In this document: positions 51,998 to 55,822 of the stretch, in pieces | How positions within the stretch are numbered: the stretch's first letter is position 1 | How the letters are laid out: every line of letters begins with the position of its first letter | Assembly (NCBI GenBank): GCA_963783575.1 | Contig: CAWAOD010000011.1 | Span: forward strand, 128,001 to 192,000 | Reading direction: 5' to 3' | From: an uncultured Spirochaetota bacterium | GTDB taxonomy: Bacteria; Spirochaetota; Brevinematia; Brevinematales; JAOACQ01 | Length of the DNA stretch: 64,000 bases | Translations under genes and position numbers: made by a program | The notes under the pieces: generated by a model | The model's input: only the letters and a program-made list of their open reading frames with translations | The model's database searches: none | Told to the model about the DNA's origin: nothing

Positions 51998-52534
51998 CTA
52001 TTGGTCAGCCTGCCGGACTTTTATCAAATTGGAGAGATTAAATCCGTTGCTTACCGCCGAATCCAGGAGAAATTGGTATACAGAATCATCGAGTTGTGGT
52101 GTTCGGCTGAGAATCCATAGATAATCCTTAGTGGCACTGGTGACCATTGCATACTGATAATTTGTGCGATCGAGCTCAAAAACAATATAATCACTGCCAA
52201 ACCATAGAAAAAAGCTTACAAAAAGTTTTGAGGGGAGTTTCTGATCCTGTACCCTCGCGTTTCCGTGCGCACTTGAACGCTTTTCGCTTTTAATACCTTC
52301 ATTCAGAACGTCCACCTGCCCGTTATTCTTTAAAGTATATGTGGCAGTGACATAATTAAGTCCTTCTTCGAAAGATGTGGGCAGCCTTGCGATCTCGTAC
52401 CATTTTCCCATATACTTATTCACATCAAAATTATCTACCGGTTTAATATCCGCAGTACTTTTGTTTTCAGCCGGCAGTGCGGAGAACGCGCAAAAAACCA
52501 TTGAAAACAATAAAACAGATTTTTTTGTGAACAT
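51998..52534 (-). CDS. blc: Bacterial lipocalin
   Basis: FDVNKYMGKWYEIARL, TATYTL, YLWILSRTP. ATG at 52534 after AGGAG. Confidence 0.9.
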   Translation of the reverse strand: MFTKKSVLLFSMVFCAFSALPAENKSTADIKPVDNFDVNKYMGKWYEIARLPTSFEEGLNYVTATYTLKNNGQVDVLNEGIKSEKRSSAHGNARVQDQKLPSKLFVSFFLWFGSDYIVFELDRTNYQYAMVTSATKDYLWILSRTPQLDDSVYQFLLDSAVSNGFNLSNLIKVRQADQ

Positions 52535-52573
52535 ACATTCTCCTATGTAATTTGTCAAGTTTTATTTTAAGAT

Positions 52574-53573
52574 TCAAGCCTCAGATTTCAGATTCAACAA
52601 CTTATAATATACTTCCACAATAATTTTTCTCGCTACTGCAATGATCGCTTTTTGTTTTCCTCTTCTTGTTCGAATATTCTCATAAAACGATTTCATTTCT
52701 TTATCATATCTCACACGAACCCAGGCTGCTTGTACTATGACCCTTAAAAAAGCACCGTCTACTTTTCGTGTAATTTGACCATTTGTTCCTTTTCCGTCAC
52801 TTTCACTAACTCTTGGTGCTAATCCCATATATGATACAAATTTTTTTGAGGTACTAAAGCGGTCTATATTGCCTACCTTCGTTATGATGTATGCGCCGGT
52901 TGTTGTGCCTATTCCCGTTAATTCTTTAATCTCATTATATCCGGGTCTCTTTATGCTTAAGGCTTCTGTTTCTTTATCCAGTACCTTAATGTCTTCTTTG
53001 AGATTTTCTAACATAACATACATCTGGATTACGGCTCTCTTTATACTCTCAGGTATGTTTTGTTCTTTGACCCAGTTTGTGTTCTTTTCAAAATTGTTGA
53101 ACATTTTGTCTCCGGTTTTAATCCCCCAATACTCCATCATCGCTATTATCTTTGTCTTATAGCTTTTCTTATTGCTAACCATTTCTTCCCTCACAGATAA
53201 TAATCCTCTTATTTCAGCGTCTTCGTCGCTTCTTATCTGACAGGTACTTAGCTCTTCTTTTTCAAATCTTTGTAATATAATCGCCATTCTTTCTGCATCT
53301 TCCTTGTCTGTTTTCCATTAATCTTTTTAAATCAATAGTATTGAAAATAACCGCATCTTTTGCTTTATCTTTTAACCGTTTGATTAAATCCCATGTCCAG
53401 TTTGTCGATTCAATCCCGATTATCGTTTCTTTGTCAATCTCTTTCTCAAATTCCGCTAATTCTTTTTCATTTCTCTCATATTGCTTGATTGATTTTTTAC
53501 CGTTTTCTATAATAATGCAAACGGTAATTTGCTTTTTGTGGATATCAATTCCGATCCACTTTTTTGCGTCCAT
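52574..53573 (-). pseudogene. IS110-family DEDD recombinase, frameshifted near 53315
   Basis: IGIDIHK, IGIES, KTDKEDA (DEDD); GIG, RFSTSKKFVSYMGLAPRVSESDG (Tnp serine), KAIIAVARK. Small deletion just before KTD. Confidence 0.88.
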
Positions 53574-53629
53574 CGTTTTCCTCCCTAATTTATTTGGGAG
53601 GCCTGAATCTTTTAGTGGTATATTAATCC

Positions 53630-53794
53630 GGTTGAAAAATTACCATACTCCAATACGAGGTTTATCCTCAAAATGGTGGTTCGGACAAGGATTCGATCAT
53701 ACTCCTAACGGGGTTTATCCCCACAAATTGATTCGATCTTTGTCCTATTCAGAGTCCTCATCTATTTTGATGCGGGCTCTTTTATTTTTCAACC
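53630..53794 (-). ncRNA. Predicted IS110 bridge-RNA-like structured RNA (~165 nt)
   Basis: Starts ~7 nt after the -10. Closed by a perfect 11-bp stem (GGTTGAAAAAT / ATTTTTCAACC); contains a 5' hairpin and two related loop domains, each with a GGAG segment. Confidence 0.6.
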
Positions 53795-53814
53795 TTTTTT
53801 ATCATACCACCTCC

Positions 53815-53985
53815 TTATGCTTTTTCAGGGAACCACGGGAAAAATAGCGGTTTACTTTTTTTGTATTCCTCGAAATCTGCCCTTCCGGCGTATTTCTTTT
53901 CCAGAAGCGGTACACCGGATACAAACAACAGGAGAAATGTTATGGTTAAAGGGCTTATAATTGATATCCATCCATATCGGGAAGA
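53815..53985 (-). pseudogene. 3' remnant of a DUF1295 (steroid 5-alpha-reductase-like) membrane protein
   Basis: [27 protein letters not shown]...FEEYKK...FFPWFP is the characteristic C-terminus; the 5' part is absent. Confidence 0.7.
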
Positions 53986-54151
53986 AGCACATAAAATAAG
54001 TATAGACATATTCTTAAGATTCGTCAACAGAAAAAATTATTCCGGAAATAACTTTTCGCCATGAATGAGTAATAAAAGGCCGTCAAATTTCATTTTGACT
54101 TTTCCTATGATCAGGATTATAATTTTCATGGATATAAAGGAGGGCATTTAT

Positions 54152-55822
54152 ATGCCGAAAGTTCTGATTGTTGGCGGCGTTGCGGGAGGTATGTCCGCGG
54201 CCGCAAGGCTTAGAAGGCTGGATGAAGAAGCGGAGATAATTGTATTCGAGAAAGGCGAATATATTTCTTACGCAAATTGCGGACTGCCCTATTACATCGG
54301 CGGTGTGATCAGGGATAGGGAAAAACTTCTGGTACAGACTATCAATTCATTCAAAAAAAGATTCCGGGTGGATATCAGGATCCTAAGTGAAGTGAAGAAA
54401 ATTGGCAGGGTTAATAAAACGCTTTCGGTTAAAAACCTTATTACCGGTGAGGAATATTCTGAAATCTATGATAAATTGATTCTATCCCCGGGCGCTGAGC
54501 CTTTTATACCCAGGCTTCCCGGGATTGACAATCCGAAGATTTTTACGCTGCGGAGCATTGCAGATACCGATAAAATAAAAGCATTTATAGATACTCAGAA
54601 ACCCAAAAGGGCATTAATAATCGGTGCGGGATTCATCGGTCTGGAAATGGCCGAAAATCTGTTCAACAGGGGAATTTTCGTAACAATTGTCGAAATGGCG
54701 GAACAGGTTATGAATGCGATAGATTTTGAAATGGCTTCAATCGTACATCAGCATTTAAGAGCAAAAAAGATAGAGTTTTACCTTAGTGATGCCGTTAAAA
54801 GCTTCGAGGATTTGGGATCTAAGATTAAAACAATTTTGACCGGCGGAAAAGAAATCGTTTCGGAAATGGTGATTTTATCAATAGGAGTCAAACCGGACAT
54901 AAAGCTTGCAAAAGAAGCCGGAATCAAGATTGGAGATAAAAACGGAATAGCTGTGAACGATTATTTGCAGACATCGGACGAGAATATTTACGCAGTCGGC
55001 GATGCCGTTGAGACAATAAACCTGGTAACCGGGAAACCGGGAATATTTCCTCTTGCCGGTCCTGCGAACAAACAGGGAAGAATTGCTGCGGACAATATCA
55101 TCAAAGGGAATAAACACAAATATAGGGGCACAATGGGAACGGCAATTGCCAAAGTTTTCGATCTCGCAGTAGGAGTTACCGGAGCGGCGGAGAAAATGCT
55201 GAAATCAGAGAATATTCCTTATCAGGCACTCATAATTCACCCTTCGTCGCATGCTTCTTATTATCCCGGAAACCTTCAGTTCAGCCTTAAGCTTGTATTC
55301 TCACCCGAAGATGGAAGGCTTTTCGGCGCCCAGGCCGTCGGTTTTGAGGGGGTTGACAAAAGAATAGACGTGATCTCCACGGCTATAATGAATCACAATA
55401 CTATTTATGATCTTGAGGAAATAGAACATTCATATGCTCCGCCTTATTCCTCGGCAAAAGACCCAGTTAATATGGCCGGGTTTGCGGCTGAAAATGCCCT
55501 GACCGGTAAAGTTAAAATCATATATTGGAACCAGATTGACGGTCTTAATCGGAGTGAATATTTTATTCTCGATGTACGAACGCCTGAAGAATACAGGATG
55601 GGAACAATAAAGGACGCGGTGAATATCCCGGTCGAATCGCTTCGAGAAAGGATTAAAGAGTTACCTAAAGATAAAAATATCGCAGTTTTCTGCAGGGTCG
55701 GCCAGCGCGGTTATATTGCGGCCAGAATACTTACCCAGAAAGGGTTTGAAGATGTCTATAATCTTACCGGAGGATATTTAACCTATTCGATGGCTCATCA
55801 GAAACAGGATAACCCTGTCTAG
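54152..55822 (+). CDS. cdr: CoA-disulfide reductase with C-terminal rhodanese domain (CoADR-RHD / persulfide reductase)
   Basis: GGVAGG, SYANCGLPY, GAGFIG, YAVGD, YAPPYSSAKDPVN, LDVRTPEE, FCRVGQRG. Confidence 0.92.
   Translation: MPKVLIVGGVAGGMSAAARLRRLDEEAEIIVFEKGEYISYANCGLPYYIGGVIRDREKLLVQTINSFKKRFRVDIRILSEVKKIGRVNKTLSVKNLITGEEYSEIYDKLILSPGAEPFIPRLPGIDNPKIFTLRSIADTDKIKAFIDTQKPKRALIIGAGFIGLEMAENLFNRGIFVTIVEMAEQVMNAIDFEMASIVHQHLRAKKIEFYLSDAVKSFEDLGSKIKTILTGGKEIVSEMVILSIGVKPDIKLAKEAGIKIGDKNGIAVNDYLQTSDENIYAVGDAVETINLVTGKPGIFPLAGPANKQGRIAADNIIKGNKHKYRGTMGTAIAKVFDLAVGVTGAAEKMLKSENIPYQALIIHPSSHASYYPGNLQFSLKLVFSPEDGRLFGAQAVGFEGVDKRIDVISTAIMNHNTIYDLEEIEHSYAPPYSSAKDPVNMAGFAAENALTGKVKIIYWNQIDGLNRSEYFILDVRTPEEYRMGTIKDAVNIPVESLRERIKELPKDKNIAVFCRVGQRGYIAARILTQKGFEDVYNLTGGYLTYSMAHQKQDNPV

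Follow-up and report, generated by a model that had tools for sequence, protein, structure and literature searches.

What is encoded in the short stretch of non-coding DNA ahead of an IS110-family recombinase gene in an uncultured Spirochaetota bacterium and, if the product is a guide RNA, how does it read the DNA that its element joins? A bridge RNA has been predicted for 85.7% of the elements in the IS110 group (PMC11208160), and the variety of bridge-RNA structures is acknowledged (PMC11208160; Evo-PIN preprint). A preliminary description of the present locus proposed a bridge-RNA-like transcript, in which a closing stem surrounds a 5' hairpin and two related loop domains, the first reading the target and the second the donor. 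We report a comparative analysis of this RNA, of the element that carries it and of its homologues. Throughout, 'the window' is the whole stretch of 64,000 nucleotides that was analysed; coordinates refer to it and, unless marked (+), features lie on its minus strand.

The element and its recombinase

The RNA region makes up the non-coding sequence at the 5' end of an IS110-family element of 1.27 kb, of which the genome holds six copies, and lies between the recombinase start codon at 53573 and the left end of the element at 53810. The DEDD recombinase gene (52574..53573; PF01548 and PF02371) had rightly been called frameshifted: it carries an 11-bp deletion near 53314, which recurs in one other copy. 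An intact copy of the protein scores 191.8 bits against NF033542 (cut-off 140) and, among 21 homologues, D10, E55, D96 and S262 are invariant and D93 nearly so. The protein thus combines the DEDD RuvC domain and the Tnp domain with catalytic serine that define the IS110 family, the window copy itself being frameshifted, and is distant from the recombinase of IS621 (E 2e-7). Open reading frames of 336 amino acids are found in copies C9 and C16 and of 170, 103, 103 and 35 amino acids in the remaining four; only C9 combines an intact frame with all of the DEDD residues and the catalytic serine, the third Asp being replaced by Asn in C16. A repaired recombinase, which the preliminary description thought necessary for a recombination assay, is therefore not needed, since C9 provides a natural one.

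The window copy is non-autonomous and has probably moved with recombinase supplied in trans. It shares the 11-bp deletion with the C12 copy at a different locus, the two being otherwise one base apart, which suggests movement in trans, with gene conversion as the alternative. The C12 copy (G000:C12, at 18649, L006) is itself split by a 2.5-kb insertion with two open reading frames of 521 and 255 amino acids, a pair that resembles an IS21-type IstA/IstB element. The named close relatives of the recombinase (45-50% identity) belong to Brevinematales or to an unplaced spirochaete. The backbone of a protein tree of 31 rows (4 of the 35 picked sequences were dropped by the ORF filter and an IS621-type row was absent) was not resolved, and for both of these reasons we give no position for the branch between the IS110 and IS1111 groups.

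With the nested insertion of C12 left out, the copies are 1280 bp or 1269 bp long, and all six are flanked at both ends by AGGAG. When the RNA alignment was searched against the genome with nhmmer only these six copies were matched, and no solitary RNA was found. In the window copy the left end spans 238 nt and the right end 32 nt, the only end repeat being the 4-bp CATA/TATG; no long terminal inverted repeat is present among the 25 longest inverted repeats listed. A core shared by both sides, ends free of long terminal repeats and a promoter at the junction (circles are predicted) are all as found in the IS110 family.

The left copy of AGGAG (53811..53815) is a host Shine-Dalgarno (SD) site overlapping the stop codon of an upstream DUF1295 frame, and its last two bases, AG (53812-53811), are the inferred core. 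This assignment is pinned by ISLin1 of Leptospira, in which AG alone is common to target and donor, so that the core is fixed as AG. The left end of the element itself (53801..53810) holds an extended -10 box, TGn-TATGAT (hexamer 53806-53801), to which we ascribe a function by analogy with IS621, and the right end (52542..52573) holds a -35 box, TTGACA (52558-52553); joined as a circle, the two ends give TTGACA-17-TATGAT. Since the -10 box carries the extending TG, weak promoter activity of the integrated copy is conceivable. The right copy of AGGAG (52540..52544) rebuilds an SD sequence 5 nt before the ATG of a host lipocalin gene (51998..52534; 178 amino acids, PF08212), the translation start site of which is the target.

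Several further features surround these ends. A mini-ORF of seven codons (53782..53805) begins 5 nt behind the host SD and runs across the 5' arm of the closing stem; it may exist only as a consequence of the -10 box. The right-end -35 box and the adjoining host bases make up a promoter-like site matching at 10 of 12 positions (52530-52558) that overlaps the lipocalin start codon, and a transcript from it would start inside the gene. The upstream DUF1295 frame (53815-54027) matches only the C-terminal positions 182-234 of the 235 in the profile and may be a remnant; beyond it lies a divergent CoA-disulfide reductase-like gene (54065-55822 (+)), whose best match, TIGR03385, is below the cut-off.

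Structure of the RNA

The predicted fold of 53580-53794 has an energy of -68.1 kcal/mol, against -45.2 +/- 4.1 for shuffled sequences (z -5.57), and none of 200 shuffles was as stable. All of the parts proposed in the preliminary description appear in this fold and in their proposed places. The 11-bp closing stem P1, which begins at the predicted transcription start, pairs its 5' arm (53784..53794) with its 3' arm (53630..53640) and encloses a 5' hairpin (53751..53780), a target-binding loop (53683..53745; inner hairpin 53722-53710, core positions 53725-53724) and a donor-binding loop (53642..53680; inner hairpin 53669-53657, core positions 53672-53671). Downstream, a further predicted hairpin (53580..53601), with a compensatory pair in homologues, sequesters the SD of the recombinase. 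A G-to-A change at 53755, in the 5' hairpin, is unique to the window copy.

This structure is conserved among homologues, as the preliminary description required of a genuine RNA. All 21 homologues are predicted to form the closing stem; in the alignment of 21 sequences 88.4% of 490 cells are paired and two-sided changes occur in 17 of the 24 pairs. None of 500 shuffles reaches this level of pairing, and slid controls give 28-46%, a comparison tilted in favour of the structure, since the structure was taken from the window row. Both inner hairpins are paired in 100% of cells, against 64% and 74% for the weaker innermost stems. The RNA thus has the conserved fold, with a pair of internal guide loops, that is expected of a bridge RNA. 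A search of Rfam gave no match up to E 5.

Covariation of guides and DNA

Homologous loops were collected with a parser for the pattern 5' strand, two core positions, U, hairpin, G, 3' strand ending in AG and two further nucleotides, in which the 3' guide was anchored on AG and four endings were kept. Of 46 loci run, nearly all contained the modules; the set used comprises 45 loci and 23 target-loop variants, L121 (no ends) being dropped and L009 completed by a separate pattern, with L013, L014, L110, L111, L125 and L143 outside the parsed set. The parser gave no usable result for five Chloroflexi or other loci and only a donor-like loop for two Natrinema loci. The genome scan yielded 80 loci, most of them distant (18-39% identity) and only three close, a metagenome scan with a single protein yielded one, and among viral contigs 23 pattern matches were obtained, none of which was confirmed.

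In permutation tests the target 3' guide followed the left flank at positions 3-5 (0.83 against 0.46 when shuffled, p 5e-5, n=23), the donor 3' guide followed the right end (0.99 against 0.90, p 2.5e-4, n=16) and the donor 5' guide was complementary to the left end (0.78 against 0.49, p 1e-4, n=16), the window group being represented in the donor test by the loop of L001; these p values are overstated because the variants are related, belonging to few lineages. The second target guide, called weak in the preliminary description, gave no signal: without ISLin1 the target 5' guide was at chance (0.35 against 0.34, p 0.39). Three of the four guides therefore covary with target or donor DNA across the 23 RNA variants, which argues that the RNA works like a bridge RNA and upholds the proposed sequence of target loop first and donor loop second.

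More telling than p values from related variants are cases in which guide and target have been retargeted together. Guide and target change in concert between ISLin1 in L107 and in L108, the top-strand (5') target guide being a perfect 8-nt complement in both, and the two variants found in genome G240 each fit their own sites. In L107-L109 ISLin1 is inserted in a tandem repeat, and the repeat unit represents the unoccupied target, in which the AG core occurs once. Across the clade it is the bottom-strand guide of the target loop that matches; the top-strand guide fits in ISLin1 and in a Bathyarchaeota element and is at chance in the SD-targeting members, the window element included.

In the window RNA the top-strand guide of the target loop (53731-53726) is degenerate and the bottom-strand guide (53708-53702) reads TTAGG+AG, followed by the handshake position (53701-53700). 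This guide, of 5 nt, is among the weakest of the variants: AGG+AG alone is matched in most of seven sites, position 4 matching at one of the seven and position 5 at two. The bases at the target-loop handshake position equal donor bases in just 4 of the 23 variants, the window variant not among them; the target loop thus does not show the IS621-type handshake, in which the nucleotides that follow the 3' guide agree with the partner DNA. As expected of a bridge RNA, both junction strands find a partner in the donor loop: its top-strand guide (53677-53673) pairs at 5 of 5 positions, and against the right end its bottom-strand guide (53655-53648) has a single wobble and a single mismatch.

The register of this donor pairing differs from that first put forward, in which ACCACC of the second domain was paired with donor GGTGGT. 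The two are literally complementary, but the register is probably off by 3 nt. ACCA forms the stem that closes the loop, with a compensatory change from A-U to G-C in three of five close homologues, and the earlier register contains a C-A mismatch in three of four variants; the register 3 nt further 3' pairs at 5 of 5 positions in all four, wobbles allowed. We therefore disfavour the former.

Two peculiarities were seen elsewhere in the sample. In L120 and L139, from the Treponema family, a hairpin-like insert lies within the 3' guide of the donor loop and apparently breaks it. The Bathyarchaeota IS110 elements L045-L049 have a target that resembles an inverted repeat, though an imperfect one, and in one case the right flank is like an inverted left end.

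Order of the guides

Within either loop, the sequence left of the AG core is repeated in the 3' strand, which therefore pairs with the bottom strand; the 5' strand is the complement of the sequence right of the core and pairs with the top strand. The guides thus come in the order top then bottom although the RNA lies upstream (5') of the recombinase. Scores were 0.93 and 0.99 under this reversed assignment and 0.39 and 0.43 under the IS621-type one, a difference that the AG anchor builds in in part. The same reversed order is evident by inspection in the Bathyarchaeota, Bradyrhizobium and Nitrobacter elements and in a Wolbachia phage element. The Wolbachia phage locus L179 (phage WO, MN180250.1) is an IS110 element with the same left end, two loops ending in AGGAG and an SD-like left flank. 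In the genome that carries the six copies (G000) a second IS110 family is present in three copies (C5, C13 and C16; L173-L175) with G-rich right flanks, to which the 5' strand of a loop in the upstream region is complementary, a hint of reversed guide order in this family too, with a target other than an SD.

In IS621 a loop consists of a guide, two core positions, U, a hairpin, G, a guide ending in AG and two handshake nucleotides (Durrant supplement to PMC11208160, by eye), and the same layout is found here. Since the modules and the AG endings of the 3' guides agree, the simplest reading would be that the geometry of RNA and protein is unchanged and the DNA sites are turned round. From these comparisons the locus is predicted to be a real bridge-RNA locus, and we hold it very likely that the IS110 element carries, at its 5' side, a bridge RNA by which DNA is read with the polarity reversed. 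The five other copies of the element, the reversed order of the guides and the targeting of SD sequences had escaped the preliminary description.

Target sites

Both loops read AGGAG, and all six copies lie in SD sites, sense to the host gene, with an ATG at 5-7 nt that opens a frame of 151-474 amino acids. In four of the six, the window copy included, where the stop of the DUF1295 frame overlaps the SD, a frame open on the same strand stops no more than 65 nt upstream. Over the whole clade ATG is found at 5-8 nt in 35 of 38 sites other than those of ISLin1, and in none of three ISLin1 sites. The background is 744 of 6550 for all AGGAG sites and 704 of 1762 for crude intergenic sites; against AT-rich intergenic AGGAG sites (457 of 862 and 240 of 418) the enrichment for SD sites shrinks to p 0.02 and 0.04.

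How much of this preference is written in the RNA? The target loop might also read the start codon, with CAT of its 5' strand pairing with ATG in a sliding register, so that SD, spacer and ATG would be programmed whole. CAT is indeed present in the 5' strand of 12 of the 17 AGGAG-type variants for which the right flank is known, ATG sites accompany 11 of these 12 and 3 of the 5 without CAT, some enrichment for ATG remains (p 0.02-0.04), and the motif of IS900 too has CAT at a fixed distance from TCTCCTT. However, the association between CAT and ATG has a Fisher p of 0.19, which gives direct reading of ATG no support; the window element has no CAT and yet has ATG at seven of seven sites; pairing in register would call for a spacer of 4, found at none of 38 sites; and CA(U) is able to pair inside the RNA. 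We regard programming of the whole unit as rather unlikely. The AGGAG motif, by contrast, appears to be programmed. Context and selection can account for most of the association with start codons, which probably reflects the motif, its AT-rich context and the loss of insertions that break genes, taken together.

A further alternative is that the window RNA is a decayed relic that has lost its guiding role. In its favour, the recombinase is frameshifted and only one of six copies has an intact frame with all DEDD residues, and the target guide falls one nucleotide short of the length seen in most relatives. Yet the RNA region differs by a single base from the other five copies, the 5-nt guide is common to L001 (87% protein identity) and L009, and the deleted form is present at two loci; we therefore find loss of guiding improbable. 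It is more doubtful still that the structure is mainly a 5'-UTR controlling translation of the recombinase, with the AGGAG copies as SD decoys rather than DNA guides: the SD of the recombinase is predicted to be paired in the sequestering hairpin in 19 of 21 homologues, a structured UTR controls tnp of ISPpu9 and the window guide fits its targets poorly beyond AGGAG, but such control is compatible with guiding and leaves unexplained that, in the Bathyarchaeota element and in ISLin1, the loop positions become non-SD sequences fitting targets that are likewise not SD sites, and that the strands of the donor loop track the ends of the element.

Comparison with known systems

The predicted bridge RNA shares with that of IS621 its place in the left end, a circle-junction promoter and the series of 5' hairpin, target loop and donor loop (PMC11208160, PMC11208158). 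The duplicated domains were at first taken as a distinct architecture, a view that we abandon, since the two loops of IS621 likewise share structural features (PMC11208158, legend to ED Fig. 4) and have the same module layout. The differences lie elsewhere. A closing stem surrounds all of the domains here, and none is described for IS621 in the relevant section of PMC11208160; the top-strand target guide is degenerate in the window element; and, whereas in the IS621 type the bottom strand is matched by the 5' side of a loop and the element carries a CT core on its top strand, the window element has the reverse, with AG on top. A bridge RNA and duplicated loops are, then, already known, and it is the putative reversed order with a 5' RNA, the all-enclosing stem and the AGGAG loops that differ from IS621.

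Among the IS1111 members the top-strand match precedes the bottom-strand match in the seekRNA, as it does here, with the opposite order in ISEc21 (PMC11187229). In the IS1111 group, however, the RNA usually lies downstream of the gene and there are sub-terminal inverted repeats of 7-17 bp (PMC11208160, PMC11187229), in contrast to the upstream RNA and 4-bp repeat of the window element; ISEc21 has its RNA upstream, as here, with a guide order opposite to that of the window element (PMC11187229). ISLin1 (ISfinder; also in the Durrant tree table, PMC11208160) has the RNA layout, closing stem, reversed order and right-end motif of the window element, but only ~27% protein identity and a repeat rather than SD sites as its target.

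IS900 can be compared by target and orientation, not by RNA. Its target motif, CATGNNNNNNTCTCCTT, is SD, spacer and start codon on the other strand, and genes are likewise rarely broken by its insertions (PMC8141618). Its host-expressed hed frame runs opposite to the transposase (PMC8141618), which would place the element antisense to the host gene; the window element is sense.

In the texts covered on IS621, IS622, CazIS110, Evo-PIN, ISPpu10, ISPpu9, IS900, half-match recombination and IS1111 seekRNAs there is neither a 5'-encoded bridge RNA of reversed order nor an SD-programmed guide, either of which may be shown in figures or in the supplements of preprints. The pipeline of the Evo-PIN preprint takes either guide order.

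A model for insertion and its implications

By analogy with IS621, the RNA would be made from the circle-junction promoter or by read-through and would bind the DEDD recombinase, each loop opening one DNA site in the geometry of IS621 with the element turned round and the CT core on the bottom strand. With AGG+AG as the 3' guide of the target loop and the 5' guide of that loop decayed, the element would go to AGGAG sites, most of them SD sequences, landing sense to the host gene and rebuilding an SD behind itself. Excision of IS621 requires read-through (Hiraizumi 2026), so sense insertion at gene starts would supply the bridge RNA by the same means.

A broader proposal is put forward tentatively, as a possibility that we would not yet favour. 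A wide branch of 5'-encoded IS110 elements, in spirochaetes, a Wolbachia phage, alphaproteobacteria and archaea, may use an IS1111-like order, and in its AGGAG-programmed members the order itself may be the strategy: sense landing at a gene start would let host transcription enter the bridge RNA and give the read-through for excision, the rebuilt SD would spare the host gene and the SD hairpin would keep the recombinase low, with IS900 as the mirror case, of the same target and opposite element orientation.

The published pairing of upstream RNAs with bottom-first order and of downstream RNAs with top-first order (PMC11187229) is broken by the window element, and rules and models for guide design that are seeded from IS621 may swap left and right guides in the 5'-encoded branch of reversed order. 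The impact is limited in that bridge RNAs are widespread in the IS110 group, their varied structures are acknowledged and SD targeting is known for IS900. Within the family, the target loop, apparently functional with some 5 nt on a single strand, provides a natural case in which to test the minimal pairing for a bridge recombinase, and the predicted guides would give an account at the level of RNA of an old habit of such elements, insertion at translation starts.
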